Source: Bacteroidia bacterium
GTDB taxonomy: Bacteria > Bacteroidota > Bacteroidia > NS11-12g > UBA9320
Reading direction: 5' to 3'
Assembly: GCA_020053795.1 (NCBI GenBank)
Contig: JAGVMN010000003.1
Coordinates: 4,891-68,890, forward strand
DNA length: 64,000 nucleotides
Shown: positions 16,615-58,298 of the stretch, piece by piece
Position numbering within the stretch: the stretch's first letter is position 1
Layout: every line of letters starts with the position of its first letter
Position numbers and translations under genes: made by a program
Notes under the pieces: model-generated
Databases searched by the model: none
What the model was told of the DNA's origin: nothing
The model's input: only the letters and a program-made list of their open reading frames with translations

Positions 16615-17607
16615 ATGAAATATATATTACTTTTTCAGCTATCCGTATTGTTGTTACTTAAGGTCGAAACGTCATTTGGTCAGGACCCAGAGTTTACGCA
16701 ATTTTATGCTACACCAATTTATACCAATCCTGCAATGGCAGGTACCGGTCAATGCGATGGAGGTGGTCGTGCAGTACTTAATTATCGTAACCAATGGCCA
16801 AGTTTGCCTGGCACTTTTGTAACCAGTGCATTTTCCTATGATCAGCATTTTGATAAAATTGGAGGAGGAATAGGACTTCTCGCCGTTCGTGATCAGGCGG
16901 GTGAAGGATTGCTTACATCAACAAATTTGAGTGGCATATACTCTTATCAATTAAGGGTAAACAAGAAGTTCACCATGAGGTTTGGCTTAGAAGCACAATT
17001 CGGAATGCGTAGCATTGATTGGAAAAAGTTGCGTTTTGAAGATCAGATTGATCCGGCCAAAGGGTTCGTCAACCCAACGTCTGAGCCTTATATCGGCAAC
17101 CAGATTAGTTATGCCAATTTTGGTACCGGATTTTTAGCTTATACGCCAAAATTCTATGGCGGTATTGCGGTTCACAATCTGATCGAACCAAACCAAAGTT
17201 TCTATGGAGACCCTAAAGCAATCGTTCCAAGAAGATATACGGCACATGCCGGTGTTGTGGTGCCATTAGATAAGAGAAAACAGCCAAAAGCCACTTTCTC
17301 TCCAAATATCTTGTTCATGCTGCAAAACAAGTTTACCCAAATTAATGCCGGATTTTATATCAACAGGGGACCTTTAGTTACCGGCCTTTGGTTCAGACAA
17401 ACTTTAGGTGAAGAAAAAAATCCTGATGCTCTGATTGTTTTAGTTGGATTTAGAAAAGATAAATTCAAATTTGGTTATAGTTTTGACCTGACTGTTTCTC
17501 AGGCACGGGCCGCAGCAAGAGGGTCTCATGAGGTATCAACGGGAATAGAATGGTGTGCTAAACAGAGACCAAGAAAATATCCGAAGTTTAGTTGTCCTGA
17601 TTTTTAA
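16615..17607 (+). CDS. PorP/SprF family T9SS membrane protein
   Basis: QDPEFTQFYATPIYTNPAMAG, LNYRNQWP, GYSFDLTVS, GSHEVS. Confidence 0.9.
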   Translation: MKYILLFQLSVLLLLKVETSFGQDPEFTQFYATPIYTNPAMAGTGQCDGGGRAVLNYRNQWPSLPGTFVTSAFSYDQHFDKIGGGIGLLAVRDQAGEGLLTSTNLSGIYSYQLRVNKKFTMRFGLEAQFGMRSIDWKKLRFEDQIDPAKGFVNPTSEPYIGNQISYANFGTGFLAYTPKFYGGIAVHNLIEPNQSFYGDPKAIVPRRYTAHAGVVVPLDKRKQPKATFSPNILFMLQNKFTQINAGFYINRGPLVTGLWFRQTLGEEKNPDALIVLVGFRKDKFKFGYSFDLTVSQARAAARGSHEVSTGIEWCAKQRPRKYPKFSCPDF

Positions 17608-28215: not shown

Positions 28216-30966
28216 TTATTGAACCTTCACCAACCTAACCCCCGCTCCATTGGCCTTTAGCAAATAAATACCATTGCCAAGAGCAGAAATGTCCAGATTG
28301 TTTTGGCCGGAAGAGCAAGGCTTTTCGTAAAGGAGGTTGCCAACCATATCATAGATGGTTACCGTTCCGGATTGTTGTAGGTGAACCGTCAAATGTCCGG
28401 GGGTTGGGTTTGGGTAAACCCTTATAGCGGGCAATTTTTCTGGAAAACCTTCTATGCCCACGTTGCAGGATGGGATCGTGCTGACGAGCGTATTCTTCAC
28501 TTCATTGGTCATCACCGGCGGGTTGAAATCGAAGTAGATTCCTGCCTTGCCTTTTACAATCGTTCCATTAGGCAGTCCGCTGTTGGGCATGATTTCATAG
28601 ATCACATAGCCGTGACTGCCTTTTTCGTCGGTGTTGCTGTCTGGCAAATGGATATTGTCGAAACGAAACTTCATCACCCGACCGGGCAATACTTCGGTGA
28701 TCATGGGCCGATGACTTTGGCCAACTACTCTCAGGGTATTGATGTCCAAATCAGCATCAAGCGAATCCAAAATATAAATGTCTATGGCATCTGCACTTCC
28801 GGTATTTTGAAACTGAACGGTATAAGTAAGCACCTCATTTTTCAGGGCATAGTTTTCCTTGCAAGCCCCGGCCGGATAAACGGATTTGATATTGGGGTCG
28901 TAGGAATTTCTAACGGGATAACAATACCGTTTGATATTGTTTTTGGTGTTGGAGTCTCCAATTGAGGGCGTAATAAATACATCAAAGCAGAGGGTATCTC
29001 TTCTTGTCAAATTCGTCTCCGAAGTAACATTTATAAAAGGTTTGATTGGTTTTGAGTCATAAGACAATCCGGTGAAATTCCAGAATAAAGTGTCTCCTGA
29101 AATAAGGTCAGGGTTTGGGGATGCACTGTTGTAATTTACATCAGAATCTAATACCAATCTCATCCCCCCATTCACGGGGTAGCATCCATCATTGAAAGGA
29201 GACACATATATATTCGATTTCCTTCCAGGGCTAAAAACATTGGTCGCCAAATCGACAGTTAAGTCAAAGCCTGAGCTGTAGGTAGGTTTATTTATCATCA
29301 GGGATTTGAATCTTGAACAATTATTGTTATCGGTCACCTTTATTGAATAAATTCCAGCCGATTTCAAAGTTGCAAAAGAATCCATTGTTGGAGGCACTGT
29401 ACTCCACTCGTAAGCGTATGGTTGCCTTCCATGAGATGCATGAACGGATGCAAAACCAGCCGTTTTGCAAAGGTTGTTTATTAGGCTATCAACAACCAAA
29501 ACAAGGTTGGCACATGAGTCTTGATTCAATTTTTGGATAAAAGAATTAATATTTAACATTTTATCTGAACCAAAACCAGTTACAAATACATTTCTAGTCA
29601 TATCAACCGCGATTGAAGTACCCCAGAAGCCTGTTTTGCACGCATTCAAACATTGAGCCCATTTAAAATTTCCATTTGAATCTAATTTAGAAACGAATGC
29701 GGCATCATTTTCTGCATTCAAATAACTAATTCCAGTACCCGGATCAAAATCTACCGAATCCCTAAATGATCCTGTGAAGTAAACGTTTCCAGAATTATCC
29801 AGAGTCAATGATAATATCTTGTTTTCGGAATACCCACCAATATTCTTTGCCCAAATAAAATTTCCAGAAGTGTCTGTTTTTGATAGATAAAGGTCTTGAT
29901 CGCCACTGGCTTTCAAAAAATAGGTACTGGCTCCGTGGTCAAAATCAACTGACCCTGTAAACTCACCCGAAGCGTAAATATTACCAAAATCATCCAATGC
30001 AATTTTTGACACAGAATAATCATTCATTAATGATTGTATATGGTTTACTTCAAAATTTTGTGCCCAAATAAATTGGCCTGAAGTATCCAATTTCAAAATG
30101 AAGTTGTTTCTTTTGATAGTGTCGGCAGATTGGTAAAACGAACCTGCGTCAGGATTAAAATCGACCGTTCCGTTAAAGTTTCCAGAGGTGTAAATATTAC
30201 CGGACTTATCTGTTTTAATAGAGGTTCCGGCAGTATAGATGTTTCCTCCTACTCTTTTTGCCCAGACAAAATTTCCATTAGGGTCTAATTTTGATACAAA
30301 TAAGTCCTGCGGACTTGTGGCAGTTAAAAAGAAGATACCTGATCCCGGATCAAAATCAGCCTTTCCGGCAAATGAACCGGTAGTATAAACATTTCCCGAA
30401 GGATCAAGCGTGATCGACAACCCAACATCACCTTCGGCAATGGATAATGCAAGAGGACCCTCATAATTGGTAGCTCCTCCCATATTTCTTGCCCAAATAA
30501 AATTGCCGGAGGCATTTAATTTTAGCACGAATATATCAGAACTCCCGGAAGCAGTTAATTTATAGACACCATTGCCAGGGTCAAAATCTACAGTATTATA
30601 AAACTGGCCCGTTATGTAAGAATTGCCCGATATGTCTACTACTAGAGAAGTCCCATGTGTGTAATGAGGCTCGGTACTTCCGCCAATCATTTTTGCCCAT
30701 ACAAAATCTCCATCAAAATCAAGCTTTGAGACAAAAATTCCGCCGGGAGTTAAGAAGAAGGTATCAACTCCAGGGTCAAAGTCAGTTAATAAATTGATCG
30801 ATCCAGTGGAATAAACATTTCCCCACCCGTCCGTGGCAACAGAATTTGAAAGAACGCCGCCCTGTCCATTACCGGTGAATTTTTTTAACCATTCTGATTT
30901 CGGTGCCTGTGCATTAATAAATGTTGGTGCCATAAAGCAAAGCAACGGGAATAATATTTTTTTCAT
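28216..30966 (-). CDS. T9SS cargo: SBBP beta-propeller repeats, SprB-like repeat, DUF7619-like domain, type A CTD
   Basis: Repeated xDxSGNVYxTGxFxxxxDFDPG...FVSKLDxxGNFxWAK. SYDPNIK, YTVQFQNTG, IYFDFNPPVMTN, RVYPNP. Confidence 0.88.
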   Translation of the reverse strand: MKKILFPLLCFMAPTFINAQAPKSEWLKKFTGNGQGGVLSNSVATDGWGNVYSTGSINLLTDFDPGVDTFFLTPGGIFVSKLDFDGDFVWAKMIGGSTEPHYTHGTSLVVDISGNSYITGQFYNTVDFDPGNGVYKLTASGSSDIFVLKLNASGNFIWARNMGGATNYEGPLALSIAEGDVGLSITLDPSGNVYTTGSFAGKADFDPGSGIFFLTATSPQDLFVSKLDPNGNFVWAKRVGGNIYTAGTSIKTDKSGNIYTSGNFNGTVDFNPDAGSFYQSADTIKRNNFILKLDTSGQFIWAQNFEVNHIQSLMNDYSVSKIALDDFGNIYASGEFTGSVDFDHGASTYFLKASGDQDLYLSKTDTSGNFIWAKNIGGYSENKILSLTLDNSGNVYFTGSFRDSVDFDPGTGISYLNAENDAAFVSKLDSNGNFKWAQCLNACKTGFWGTSIAVDMTRNVFVTGFGSDKMLNINSFIQKLNQDSCANLVLVVDSLINNLCKTAGFASVHASHGRQPYAYEWSTVPPTMDSFATLKSAGIYSIKVTDNNNCSRFKSLMINKPTYSSGFDLTVDLATNVFSPGRKSNIYVSPFNDGCYPVNGGMRLVLDSDVNYNSASPNPDLISGDTLFWNFTGLSYDSKPIKPFINVTSETNLTRRDTLCFDVFITPSIGDSNTKNNIKRYCYPVRNSYDPNIKSVYPAGACKENYALKNEVLTYTVQFQNTGSADAIDIYILDSLDADLDINTLRVVGQSHRPMITEVLPGRVMKFRFDNIHLPDSNTDEKGSHGYVIYEIMPNSGLPNGTIVKGKAGIYFDFNPPVMTNEVKNTLVSTIPSCNVGIEGFPEKLPAIRVYPNPTPGHLTVHLQQSGTVTIYDMVGNLLYEKPCSSGQNNLDISALGNGIYLLKANGAGVRLVKVQ

Positions 30967-31015
30967 GGGATGATTAGGTTGGTTTTCAGATGATCGGTTT
31001 CGGTCGTCAATACCA

Positions 31016-31042
31016 TAGACACTATAATCCCGAAAGGTTGCA
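31016..31042 (-). promoter_or_regulatory. Possible ECF-sigma promoter for the T9SS cargo gene
   Basis: Minus strand TGCAAC-N16-GTCTA. Confidence 0.45.
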
Positions 31043-31083
31043 GACGAATGACATGATATTCATCCGATTAATGTCATATTTTT

Positions 31084-31186
31084 TCAATCGAGGTTAACCT
31101 CCTGATACAACCCCGGAATCTCTGCACTCCTAAACCCTTTGCCTTTGAGTGCCGCCTTGAACAATTCCTGCTTTTCCGGTTCGCCG
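31084..31186 (-). pseudogene. Orphan second copy of the 3' end of the beta-CASP RNase gene
   Basis: Encodes GEPEKQELFKAALKGKGFRSAEIPGLYQEVNLD*. 79/90 nt identical to 31906-31995. Confidence 0.9.
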
Positions 31187-31281
31187 CTTTTGATTGAATA
31201 CTTAAAATTTATCTTTGAACCAATCTTCAGCACAGCAGATTCAATGACTACTTAGTATCGCAACAGAACAAACTAATTGAA

Positions 31282-31887
31282 ATGACGTACAATCCGAATG
31301 TTCATCACCGCAGATCAATCAGATTAAAAGGATATGACTATTCGAAGGCGGGTGCCTATTTCATTACCATTTGTTGTAAGGATATGAAATGTCGGTTCGG
31401 AAAAGTTGAAAATGAAGAAATGATATTTAACGAATTTGGTTCAATCGCAAATGATGAATGGTTGAAATTGCCGGAACGGTTTCCAAATTTTGAATTGGAT
31501 GTTTTTCAAATAATGCCGAATCATATGCACGGCATTATTGTTTTGAACGAAACTCCTGTCGGGGTAGGGTTCACCCCTACCCAAAATATGCAAGACAAAC
31601 GAAAAAATGTTCTAAATGAAAACATGTCTGCGTTGGAAAATGGGGCGGGGGTAAACCTCGCCCGGACGGTGAACCCCACGGTTGGGGACATTGTTGGTGC
31701 ATACAAATCATTGGTAGCAAATGCATGTCTGGATATTTACAAATCGAAGAATAAAATAATGGGTAAATTGTGGCAAAGGGATTATTATGAGCACATTATC
31801 CGCAAGGAACAATCGTATCAAAGGATTTCAGATTATATCATCAATAATCCTGCAAAATGGGATGCTGATAAATTTTTTGATCGATAA
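31282..31887 (+). mobile_element. REP-associated tyrosine transposase (RAYT, IS200/Y1 HUH family)
   Basis: HHRRSIRLKGYDYS..GAYFITIC, IMPNHMHGII (HUH), WQRDYYEHIIR, YIINNP (catalytic Tyr). Confidence 0.9.
31558..31667. repeat. Inverted pair of REP-like palindromes embedded in frame in the RAYT gene
   Basis: GTCGGGGTAGGGTTCACCCCTACCC (31558-31582) versus the reverse complement of 31642-31667, 18/25 identical. Confidence 0.7.
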
Positions 31888-31892
31888 CCAGT

Positions 31893-33299
31893 CTAACTTA
31901 ACTCCACCTCCTGATACAACCCCGGAATCTCTACATTCTTAAAACCTTTGCCTTGAAGGGCTGCTTTGAACAATTCCTGTTTTTCGGGTTCGCCGTGCAC
32001 GAGGAAAAGCTTTTTCAGTTTGGTTTTGTCCAGGTGTTTCAGGTAATCCAGCATTTCGGGTTCATCGCCGTGGGCACTGAAGCTGTCCATGATTTCTATT
32101 CGGGCATTCACCCTCACTTCTTTGCCAAAGATGAATACCGGGTTTTCACCGTTGCGGATGCGGGAACCCAGGGTTCCATCGGCACAATAGCCAACTACCA
32201 GCACAGTAGTCGTTGGGTTTTCCAGATGATAGCTCAGGTGGTTTTTGATGCGTCCGGCGTTCATCATCCCCGACGCACTTACGATAATGCAGGGGTCTTT
32301 GTAATTGTTAAGAGCCTTGGAGGCTTCCGCCTCGCGGATATAGGTTAGTCCGTTGAAACCAAAGGGATTCGGGTCATGCAACATATATTGATTGATGCCA
32401 TCGTCGAAACACTCGGGGTGCATGATGAAGATTTCGGTTGCATTCACTGCCATGGGGCTGTCCACAAAGACTTTAATCTTTGGCAAGCGGCCGCTGCTTT
32501 CCAGTTGGTCGAGCATATAGACCACTTCCTGGGTTCTGCCCACGCTGAAGGCCGGGATCAGCAATTTTCCGCGATTCTCCACACAGGTTTCCTTGATAAT
32601 CCGCAAAAGAGCTTCTATGTCTTCGGATTCTTTTTCGTGAACAGTTCCGCCGTAAGTAGATTCACAAATCAGGTAATCAACGTCTGGCATCGGTACAGGG
32701 TCGCGTAAAATGGGGCGGTGCGGACGACCGATATCTGCTGTAAATCCGAAATACACAAAACTCCGGTCTGCCTTTTCTATTTTAAGGGTGACACTGGCCG
32801 AGCCCAAAATATGGCCACTGTCGCGAAACAAAACGGAGATGCCTCTTCGCATGGTGTGCCATCTTTCGTAACCGATACTGACAAACTGATCGAGGCAACG
32901 GGTAGCGTCTTCGGCGGTGTATAAAGGTTTTTCGAAAGGTTTCTTGCTGTGGGCATTCCGCCGGTTGCGATATTCTGCTTCGCGTTCCTGTATCATGGCC
33001 GAGTCAAGCAACATAATGGCCGACAGATCGCGGGTGGCACTGGTGCAATATATTTCGCCCTCGAAACCATCCTTCACCAGTTTGGGGATGCGGCCTGAAT
33101 GGTCAATGTGGGCGTGAGACAAAATCATGATTTCAATCTCTGCCGGGTCAAAACCCCATTTGCTGTTCAAATTGTTCATGTCCTCCCTGTGGCCCTGATA
33201 CAGGCCGCAGTCGAGCAGTATTTTGATGCCTTCGTCAGTAGTGATCAGATGACAACTGCCCGTTACCGTTCGGGCTGCTCCGCAGAATTTTACTTTCAT
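31893..33299 (-). CDS. MBL-fold beta-CASP ribonuclease (YSH1-like)
   Basis: GAARTVTGSCH, LSHAHIDHSG, SGHILGS, CESTYG, SASGM, FSAHGD, LVHGE. Confidence 0.92.
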   Translation of the reverse strand: MKVKFCGAARTVTGSCHLITTDEGIKILLDCGLYQGHREDMNNLNSKWGFDPAEIEIMILSHAHIDHSGRIPKLVKDGFEGEIYCTSATRDLSAIMLLDSAMIQEREAEYRNRRNAHSKKPFEKPLYTAEDATRCLDQFVSIGYERWHTMRRGISVLFRDSGHILGSASVTLKIEKADRSFVYFGFTADIGRPHRPILRDPVPMPDVDYLICESTYGGTVHEKESEDIEALLRIIKETCVENRGKLLIPAFSVGRTQEVVYMLDQLESSGRLPKIKVFVDSPMAVNATEIFIMHPECFDDGINQYMLHDPNPFGFNGLTYIREAEASKALNNYKDPCIIVSASGMMNAGRIKNHLSYHLENPTTTVLVVGYCADGTLGSRIRNGENPVFIFGKEVRVNARIEIMDSFSAHGDEPEMLDYLKHLDKTKLKKLFLVHGEPEKQELFKAALQGKGFKNVEIPGLYQEVELS

Positions 33300-33440
33300 A
33301 TTGTATTAATTATTAAACCACATTCTTACATTGTTTTAAACCTTGAATGAGAAGTATTTGCTTTTTCACCGTGCGGTTTTTTCTACTCTTAATAAAGGTT
33401 AGTATTTGTCATTTCGGCAAAGTAATGATATAATTGAAAA

Positions 33441-34337
33441 ATGACCAAAAAGCATCATTATCTGCATGATGAAAAACTGGCTGTTTATGAAGGCAGGAAC
33501 TTTCAATTGAAGAATTTCAATACCGATTATCAGGGGAATTTTGAAAATCAGAAAGACGGTGTGCAGCAATTGGAGGCCGACAAAAAGAAGCTTTACGAAC
33601 TCCAACAGCTGCTCTTCGCAACAGACAACCACGCCCTACTACTCATCTTCCAGGCCATGGACGCAGCGGGCAAAGACAGCACCATCAGCCATGTTTTTTC
33701 GGGGATGTTTCCACAGGCGGGAACCGTTCACAGTTTCAAAGTGCCCGGCCAAGCCGAGTTGGATCACGACTATTTGTGGCGGACAACCAATTGTCTGCCT
33801 GAACGAGGCAGGGTCAGCATTTTCAACCGGTCGTATTACGAGGAAATTTTAGTGGCCAAAGTGCATCCGCAGATTGTTTTGAATCAGAGGATTCCGGGAG
33901 TCAGTTCTTTGAAAGACGTAGATGAAACCTTTTGGAAAAACAGGTATGAGAGCATCCGCAATCAGGAAAAACACCTGACCCAAAACGGAACGATCATCCT
34001 CAAATTTTTCCTGAACGTATCGAAAGAAGAGCAAAAGAAAAGATTCGTTTCCCGCATTGATGAAAGCAAAAAAAACTGGAAATTCAGCCTCGAAGACCTG
34101 GAAGAAAGGAAGCATTGGGATGCCTATCAAAAAGCCTATCAGAAGGCCATAGCCGAAACCGCCACCTCCGATGCTCCCTGGTTTGTGATCCCCGCCGACA
34201 AAAAATGGTTCATGCGGGCAGCAGTTTGCAACATCATTGTCAATCGCCTGGCCGAACTGAATCTGAAATACCCTGAATTGACTGATGCCGCAAAAGCTGA
34301 ATTAAAAGAGGCGAGGGAAAAATTGATGAGGGAGTGA
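33441..34337 (+). CDS. ppk2: Polyphosphate kinase 2 family protein
   Basis: FQAMDAAGKD, FNRSYYEE, KFFLNVSKEEQ, PWFVIPADKKW. Confidence 0.92.
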   Translation: MTKKHHYLHDEKLAVYEGRNFQLKNFNTDYQGNFENQKDGVQQLEADKKKLYELQQLLFATDNHALLLIFQAMDAAGKDSTISHVFSGMFPQAGTVHSFKVPGQAELDHDYLWRTTNCLPERGRVSIFNRSYYEEILVAKVHPQIVLNQRIPGVSSLKDVDETFWKNRYESIRNQEKHLTQNGTIILKFFLNVSKEEQKKRFVSRIDESKKNWKFSLEDLEERKHWDAYQKAYQKAIAETATSDAPWFVIPADKKWFMRAAVCNIIVNRLAELNLKYPELTDAAKAELKEAREKLMRE

Positions 34338-57683: not shown

Positions 57684-58298
57684 TTGAGGAAAGCTGCCAC
57701 TATTATTTCATGGATGCTGCATCCTGTTTGGCTTACAGGGATAGGAATCTGGATTATTTTCAACCATCATTTCATCTTAAAAAGCAAATTAACCGCCCTG
57801 TCCCTGGGGCCTTTGTACTTTGTTATTTTTCTTTCGACGGTTTTGTTGCCTGTGATGACCGGAATGATCATCACCGGAACGCAACATCTATCGAAACTCC
57901 CTACCATTGAGATTAAACATCGTTCAGCCTTCCTTATGTCCGGAGCCGTTTATACCTCACTCCTGGTTTTTTTCTTCACAAAGGCCTCTCTTGAAATTTT
58001 TGTACTGCCATTTATGATTGGCCAGGTGCTTATTCAAATCATTGGGGCGATTTTCAACCTGAAAATGAAAATCAGTTTGCATGGATTGGGTTGGGGAGGC
58101 ATAACGGCCATGCTCTACCAACTCATTGCAATAGGTTCGCCGCAGGTGTTCCGGATTTTTTTAGCAGCCATATTTTTGAGCGGGCTGGTACTTTCGGCCA
58201 GGTTAATTGTAAAAGCACATACGAGGTTCGAGATTTATTTGGGATATTCGGCGGGTTTTTTGATCATGATGTTAATCTTATTCTGCTTTGCTGAATAG
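57684..58298 (+). CDS. Membrane protein downstream of rpoN (PAP2-like TM domain)
   Basis: Six TM segments, KISLH and ARL..KAHT..EIYLG motifs. TTG start. Confidence 0.7.
   Translation: MRKAATIISWMLHPVWLTGIGIWIIFNHHFILKSKLTALSLGPLYFVIFLSTVLLPVMTGMIITGTQHLSKLPTIEIKHRSAFLMSGAVYTSLLVFFFTKASLEIFVLPFMIGQVLIQIIGAIFNLKMKISLHGLGWGGITAMLYQLIAIGSPQVFRIFLAAIFLSGLVLSARLIVKAHTRFEIYLGYSAGFLIMMLILFCFAE

Follow-up and report, generated by a model that had tools for sequence, protein, structure and literature searches.

An old recombination scar behind a Bacteroidota RNase gene, probably with a RAYT gene as passive cargo and an orphan gene end homogenised by gene conversion

The window analysed here, a stretch of 64,000 nucleotides from a Bacteroidia metagenome-assembled genome (MAG; contig C33, positions 4891-68890), contains a gene of the REP-associated tyrosine transposase family (RAYT; REP, repetitive extragenic palindrome) lying between two copies of the 3' end of a beta-CASP ribonuclease (RNase) gene, one the end of the working gene and the other a stranded fragment, here called the orphan. 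We consider it probable that this arrangement is an old recombination scar in which the RAYT gene was passive cargo, and in which the orphan has since been homogenised with the working gene by gene conversion. The source genome is 74% complete and comprises 2.3 Mb in 76 contigs.

The RNase gene (31893-33299, minus strand) is intact and encodes a metallo-beta-lactamase-fold protein of 468 amino acids (aa; Pfam Beta-Casp, RMMBL and Lactamase_B), and orthologues were found in all 41 relatives searched. A repeat search recovers its 3' end twice, as a direct repeat of 90 nt with 88% identity and a spacing of 809 nt, a match that reaches a BLAST E-value of 2e-25 against the 2.3-Mb genome. The functional copy (31906-31995, minus strand; codons for GEPEKQELFKAALQGKGFKNVEIPGLYQE) continues into the working tail VELS and its stop codon (31893-31905, minus strand; EVELS-stop); the non-functional orphan copy (31097-31186, minus strand) begins at GE codons and continues into the tail VNLD and a stop codon of its own (31084-31096, minus strand; EVNLD-stop). 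In the RNase frame the 11 mismatches comprise seven synonymous changes and four replacements (Q/K, K/R, N/S, V/A). All of this reproduces the description given in an earlier reading of the sequence, referred to below as the original prediction. The RAYT gene (31282-31887, plus strand) is the only open reading frame (ORF) between the copies, is convergent with the RNase gene and ends with its stop codon 5 nt from the RNase stop.

The age of the arrangement can be judged from one relative. A protein-database search gave an RNase (P0121) that is 92-93% identical in protein and is encoded on a 2.9-kb metagenome contig of the Joint Genome Institute (JGI; Ga0499958_0015222, hereafter L131), which gives an alignment of 2,250 nt with the window, 82% identical. 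The order on L131 is that of the window (RNase, convergent RAYT, spacer, orphan, start of an SBBP-family gene), and the orphan/spacer junction is identical between the two. Because layout and junction agree in this way, the comparison points to one founding event older than the split between the window and L131 lineages, with vertical inheritance since then. That split is deep: the RNase genes differ at a synonymous divergence (dS) of 1.14 with 92% aa identity and a ratio of replacement to synonymous change (omega) of 0.04, the RAYT genes at dS 0.55 with 73% aa identity and omega 0.30, and unconstrained intergenic DNA is only ~40-55% identical, which is beyond alignment. With omega at 0.30, the RAYT appears to have been inherited vertically under purifying selection since the split.

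With four copies of the RNase end available, two per genome, their relationships can be compared site by site. Over the 90 nt, the working copy and the orphan differ at 11 positions within the window and at 14 within L131, the two working copies differ at 12, the two orphans at 26, and the cross pairs at 20-22. Seven informative sites group the copies by genome, two group them by position, and none supports the third arrangement; the genome-grouping sites include the codons that separate FKAALQGKGF from FREALRSKGF, and two sites (CTT/CTC, and AAR versus xGG) resemble old differences between orphan and gene. Changes specific to one lineage fall almost entirely on the orphans, eight in the window and eight in L131, against none in the window's working copy and two in that of L131. 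In L131 the orphan departs from the invariant EIPGLYQE motif by P>S and Y>S. Nevertheless, the orphans of the window and L131 are 63-73% identical, well above the neutral baseline of ~40-55%. Most simply, the orphan would be a neutrally decaying sequence that is reset from time to time by copying from the working gene 0.8 kb away, so that gene conversion would keep the copies ~85-88% alike within each genome. The excess of synonymous differences between them, from which the original prediction had concluded that both copies evolved as coding sequence, would follow from purifying selection on the working copy together with recent resetting of the orphan, and no second coding history is needed; the grouping of orphans by genome (seven sites versus two) and the 16 orphan changes versus two in the working copies speak against one.

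The tails preserve an older signal. In the RNase tree the window and L131 are sister to a genus designated g12, with weak support (87/77), and the relatives at 71-74% RNase identity and more distant sequences form the outgroups. RNase proteins of the outgroups end in YNLE-stop or NLD-stop, whereas those of the window, L131 and g12 end in ELS-stop, ELG-stop or DLG-stop. The working tail of the window is thus of the derived ELG/ELS type common to L131 and g12, and the window orphan retains the ancestral NL[DE]-stop type, beside what is presumably the original downstream gene. This gene (28216-30966, minus strand) encodes an SBBP beta-propeller/DUF7619 surface protein sorted by the type IX secretion system (T9SS), and an SBBP-family gene occupies the same position in L131. 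In both genomes, then, a fragment homologous to the conserved part of the RNase lies beyond the RAYT cassette and is followed by an SBBP gene, the layout that characterises C-terminal displacement, and the NLD-stop tail of the window orphan is what would be expected of a displaced old end. The proposal that an old 3' end was displaced is thus supported. The event predates a split at dS 0.5-1.1, and any signal of a foreign-allele origin of the new RNase end is erased at this locus by gene conversion.

A third copy of the RNase 3' end complicates the history of the orphan's distal part. It lies on contig C34 (about 16890-16990), next to and upstream of an SBBP paralogue that is 53% identical to that of the window, and its inner part is frameshifted and far more decayed than the window orphan. 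The two remnants have in common a 26-nt core, the NLD-stop tail and ~70 nt of intergenic DNA at 89-95% identity, including a hairpin (ATGACAT-N16-ATGTCAT, at 31048-31077 in the window's intergenic stretch, 30967-31083), and the inner boundary of the C34 remnant lies within ~5 nt of that of the window orphan. Across C34:16760-17010 the likeness in core, tail and intergenic DNA far exceeds that of the SBBP genes that they precede. At a codon that reads AAR in both working genes, all three orphans, those of the window, L131 and C34, have xGG, which argues for a common origin of the orphans. The SBBP N-terminus of L131 matches the paralogue on C33 and that on C34 at 42-46% identity, with no preference for either.

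Nothing about the RAYT itself points to it as the agent of the insertion. The protein (201 aa) has the Y1/HUH motifs of the family, with HUH as NHMHG and the tyrosine within DYIINNP; its scores lie below the cut-offs of both family models, at 63 bits for NCBIfam REP_Tyr_transpos (cut-off 80) and 19 bits for Pfam Y1_Tnp (cut-off 23). Among PDB sequences it matches E. coli TnpA-REP alone (4ER8; E = 0.001), in an alignment that covers NHMHG and the WQ..YYEHIIR...DYIINNP block. A search for homologues gives more than 7,900 matches across many Bacteroidota orders, many annotated RayT and the nearest ~70% identical. Within the source genome the gene is single-copy, its sole paralogue being 33% identical. 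The repeat search found no inverted repeats flanking 31282-31887, where the flanks are the RNase 3'-end copies, and no integrase or other recombinase is present between the repeats or in the neighbourhood. A genome-wide hairpin scan of the 74%-complete MAG likewise showed no dispersed REP population: the two G-rich hairpins of the RAYT type in the assembly (C33:36451 and C33:36533) are both within the RAYT ORF, in frame in its variable middle (31561-31663, plus strand; hairpins at 31561-31583 and 31643-31663). The first of these is 100% identical in the L131 orthologue despite the gene's dS of 0.55, and the second is exchanged in L131 for another type, GGGCAACCGCAAGGGATTGCCC, which flanks RAYTs at two other loci (L051 and L124). 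A second Y1 gene of the source genome (C3:81149-81742, of the YHIYNR...PNHFHLL type) has classical palindromes, TTTGGAAAGTTTGAAACTTTCCAAA, on both flanks. An IS200/IS605 insertion sequence was ruled out by the single copy, the absence of end hairpins and the absence of tnpB. A diversity-generating retroelement was rejected as well, as there is no reverse transcriptase gene and the mismatches involve all bases rather than adenine specifically.

Between the orphan and the RAYT start lies a spacer (31187-31281, plus strand) that is ~88% conserved with L131, and 95% conserved in the part beside the orphan. Promoters in Bacteroidota have a -33/-7 consensus, from which the spacer is predicted likely to be the RAYT promoter (TTTG ... 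TATCTTTG). An Rfam search of the region gave zero matches. On the other side, a PPK2 gene adjoins the RNase gene on the right, and the divergent PPK2-RNase pairing is preserved across several of the family's genera. At third codon positions these two genes (31893-34337) reach a G+C content (GC3) of 0.56-0.58, where the genome averages 0.41 (SD 0.06); as a marker of foreign origin, base composition was discarded as without discriminating power, both repeat copies being equally GC3-rich.

The history that we favour would run as follows. Before the split between the window and L131 lineages, a cassette of ~0.7 kb, comprising the RAYT promoter and ORF, would have been placed directly behind the RNase stop codon, stranding a ~100-nt copy of the RNase 3' end on the far side, beside the original downstream SBBP gene. 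The route may have been one-sided homologous plus illegitimate recombination by the host, of the homology-facilitated illegitimate recombination (HFIR) or 'C-terminal displacement' type, or else integration of a circle by a single crossover. The RAYT would have come as passive cargo and then been inherited vertically under purifying selection, while the orphan would have decayed neutrally and been overwritten repeatedly by intrachromosomal gene conversion from the working gene. In the window lineage the distal part of the orphan (the 26-nt core, the NLD-stop tail, the intergenic stretch and the SBBP 5' end) would in addition have been exchanged with the paralogous SBBP locus on C34. Displacement of 3' ends in Rhs, CdiA and type VI secretion system (T6SS) loci has been attributed to HFIR (Kirchberger et al. 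2017, PMC5361080).

That such a cassette does not need a transposase as cargo is suggested by the rest of the source genome. A genome-wide self-comparison for the footprint [gene 3' end]-cargo-[orphan 3' end] gave four clear cases. A gene for a major facilitator superfamily (MFS) transporter is the target at C3:67371-68093 (repeat of 53 nt; cargo, an outer-membrane-protein-like (OMP-like) gene), a multidrug and toxic compound extrusion (MATE) gene at C36:22792-24100 (94 nt; a gene for a 349-aa protein), murA at C41:33065-34110 (113 nt; a CPBP-like gene) and a 782-aa gene at C22:14505-18886 (273 nt; three genes, including those for a T9SS protein and an extracytoplasmic function (ECF) sigma factor); there are two looser cases besides. 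In all four the repeat extends through the stop codon plus exactly 4-5 nt. No shared end motif was found at the cassette boundaries of the RAYT loci or of these cassettes. Gene end and orphan differ by 31 synonymous changes versus 6 replacements over the four cases, and by 19 versus 1 over those on C3, C36 and C41. Since the differences are nearly all synonymous where a neutrally decaying orphan would be expected to show ~60% replacements, the sibling orphans appear to have belonged to working, diverged alleles until recently. Judged by these differences, foreign gene ends do enter this genome along with cargo, which consists of ordinary accessory genes. Because the footprint also flanks genes other than RAYTs, the RAYT is not singled out as the agent of its own insertion. 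When an empty site was sought for the murA cassette, the nearest MurA proteins were 83-84% identical and came from loci with a different downstream order. A possible further case begins inside the window: a 74-nt segment at 58200-58273, the 3' part of a gene for a 204-aa membrane protein, has an 84%-identical copy ~6 kb downstream, past a giant T9SS protein gene and just beyond the window's end (C33:69124-69197).

The original prediction had proposed a search for other RAYTs between duplicated gene ends, and such loci exist. Direct repeats flank relatives of the RAYT at 9 of 80 loci from species genomes, and at six of these nine the repeats are ends of neighbouring genes, which amounts to 6 of ~75 relatives; REP-like hairpins account for two. 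At L100, L122 and L126 the repeated segment is the 5' end of hsdR, present at L126 in three copies that enclose a second gene as well; at L051, from the isolate Hanamia caeni, it is the 5' end of a gene for 710 aa, at L060 the beginning of the gene downstream and at L048 the 3' end of a methylase gene. The signature is not specific to RAYTs: as a control, 500 random genes of 150-300 aa from the source genome had adjacent repeats of at least 40 nt at five places, two at Y1 genes and three at cassettes described above, which suggests that gene-end duplication marks inserted genes in general. RAYT-family genes often lie within type I restriction-modification operons (L100, L115, L122, L126), where their stop codon overlaps the start of hsdR, whose 5' end recurs upstream as an orphan copy, and the triple repeat at L126 resembles a cassette array.

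Four observations weigh against the history that we favour. First, the founding event cannot be reconstructed from an unoccupied locus, as no empty site exists at alignable distance among the relatives searched (66 genomes of the family, with RNases at no more than 70% aa identity, and metagenome contigs at no more than 65%). The closest relative, L131, itself carries the insert, and the next ones (L132-L136, RNase 71-74%) are without a RAYT in rearranged neighbourhoods. Second, third codon positions account for 9 of the 16 orphan-specific changes, a mild excess. Third, the repeat in L131 runs through tail and stop (102 nt, 86%), with VELG-stop on both copies, so that the ancestral orphan may have ended like the gene, the outcome expected of an in-situ duplication; either the L131 tail was overwritten by conversion, or the NLD-stop tail of the window arrived later from a C34-type locus. 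Fourth, Y1 genes of other subfamilies and orientations stand behind the orthologous RNase in two g12 genomes (G019 and G011; genes at L002:825-1451 and L003:2925-3257). The G019 gene is 34% identical to the window RAYT and the G011 gene is a fragment with hairpins; one of the two is co-directional with the RNase gene, and the other is a convergent fragment with a hairpin cluster 11 nt after the RNase stop. Duplicated RNase ends were looked for in both genomes and none were found, and the outgroups with an NLE tail have no Y1 gene behind the RNase. Three Y1 subfamilies behind the same RNase hint at a site- or enzyme-specific factor beyond passive cargo.

The third of these observations bears on the alternative that survives best, to which we give a small but appreciable chance: that ~105 nt of target, the last codons and the stop, were duplicated in situ as the cassette inserted, so that the two copies were identical at birth and the NLD-stop tail came later from C34. 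Besides the extent of the L131 repeat, this is favoured by the near identity of the window orphan's tail and intergenic stretch to C34, and conversion plus decay would account for the present differences. Against it, the C34 remnant must still derive from an RNase allele with an NLD-stop tail, and the purely synonymous differences of the sibling cassettes are not explicable by decay of an identical copy. We also know of no insertion mechanism that gives target duplications of 50-270 bp.

The Y1 genes behind the RNase bear on a more doubtful proposal, that Bacteroidota possess an undescribed, recombinase-independent route for adding cassettes exactly at gene boundaries, with RAYTs as unusually frequent passengers or even agents. 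Such a route would set the cassette on a start codon, or 4-5 nt past a stop codon, and duplicate 50-270 nt of gene end from a diverged allele. The gene-end repeats at 7 of ~76 loci of the family would point to it, as would the stop codons that abut hsdR starts or the RNase stop and the three Y1 subfamilies behind the RNase.

It is unlikely that the RAYT cassette was itself mobile and arrived from a related genome in the manner of an integrase island, bringing a replacement 3' end, displacing the resident one and leaving two copies that diverged as coding sequence. The tails would fit, being equal in length and different in sequence, with NLD-stop on the orphan ancestral and ELS-stop on the gene derived, and so would the 26-nt core that is identical in all copies; the nearly exclusively synonymous differences at C3, C36 and C41 (19 versus 1) show that foreign alleles are imported, and the route of long-term RAYT transfer is left open by Bertels et al. 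2017 (PMC5581495). Against it, the structure is older than a split at dS 0.5-1.1 and was vertically inherited, each orphan pairs with the working copy in its own genome, with all decay on the orphan side, and there is no recombinase, no REP end and no second RAYT copy at a footprint that other genes share. The original prediction had taken the locus as a possible record of how RAYTs move between genomes; an ancient insertion, a RAYT inherited vertically at omega 0.30 and the same footprint at non-RAYT genes do not bear this out.

Quite improbable, too, is a function for the orphan itself, whether it encoded a small protein or served the SBBP gene as promoter or leader, that would have preserved its likeness to the RNase without gene conversion. 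Such a function would explain why, against a deletion bias, the fragment persists in both lineages and in the C34 paralogue; a 49-codon ORF (31084-31233) is open in both genomes, and conservation with C34 is high across the flanking hairpin and the intergenic stretch. Yet the states shared within a genome include replacements (the K/R, A/E, Q/R and G/S codons), which are beyond the reach of selection, the motif conserved best carries P>S and Y>S changes in the L131 orphan, and the N-terminal part of the ORF has three replacements and no synonymous change; a role in SBBP expression could explain the retention and not the concerted pattern. A chimeric contig joining the RNase 3' ends of two strains, for which a 74%-complete MAG in 76 contigs might be suspected and which the original prediction had named among its possible refutations, is hardly credible, as the independent L131 assembly, from another sample and 18% diverged, has the same order and junctions, no k-mer is shared at the orphan/spacer junction to cause a misjoin, and analogous structures occur in isolate genomes such as that of Hanamia caeni (L051).

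The scar that we favour resembles several known systems without coinciding with any. As in the Rhs, CdiA and T6SS orphans (Jackson et al. 2009; PMC5361080), the incoming segment would consist of a new gene end and cargo, with the old 3' end pushed downstream and retaining homology to the conserved part of the gene; later recombination between main copy and orphan is also known there. Here, in contrast, the target is a housekeeping RNase, both ends encode nearly the same peptide with no toxin tip swapped, a RAYT takes the place of an immunity gene as cargo, and the orphan of ~100 nt is homogenised and not a spare part. Integrase islands and cis-mobilizable elements (CIMEs) with replacement ends (attL/attR) likewise have direct repeats of the target's 3' end around the insert and leave the gene intact, whereas the present insert, with 0.7 kb of cargo, neither carries nor adjoins an integrase or other recombinase, its flanking repeats have diverged over their whole length, and in a structure long fixed in two lineages excision is not evident. 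With the RAYT/REPtron systems (TnpA-REP 4ER8; Nunvar 2010; Bertels & Rainey 2011; PMC5581495) the gene shares its Y1/HUH nature with HUH and Tyr motifs, and with domesticated RAYTs its single copy, vertical inheritance and purifying selection (PMC5581495); it differs in having no flanking inverted REPs and no population of REPs or of REP doublets forming hairpins (REPINs), and in falling below both family cut-offs. Finally, as in the concerted evolution of tuf, rRNA operons and antigenic-variation pseudogenes, copies within a genome are closer than positional orthologues, but here the tract is ~90 nt at ~88% identity and one partner is a dead fragment. The locus is therefore a set of known processes in an unusual combination, with an informative outgroup, and no new kind of element.

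What the locus offers is a clean and datable case in which a dead gene fragment of ~90 nt appears to have been kept like its parent gene by conversion over a dS of ~1. It also serves as a warning: where a gene end and its orphan differ mostly at synonymous sites, an outgroup is needed before two coding histories are read from the divergence. A further RAYT lineage is added that has no REP population and whose hairpins are confined to its own ORF, and the analysis shows RAYT-family genes and other cassettes repeatedly between duplicated gene ends, a pattern that can be mined systematically. Transfer of RAYTs dominates only over very long times, by a route that is unknown (Bertels et al. 2017, PMC5581495). 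Ancient and blurred by conversion, the present locus does not settle how RAYTs reach new genomes; because similar scars flank ordinary accessory genes, however, the evidence favours passive carriage by host recombination.

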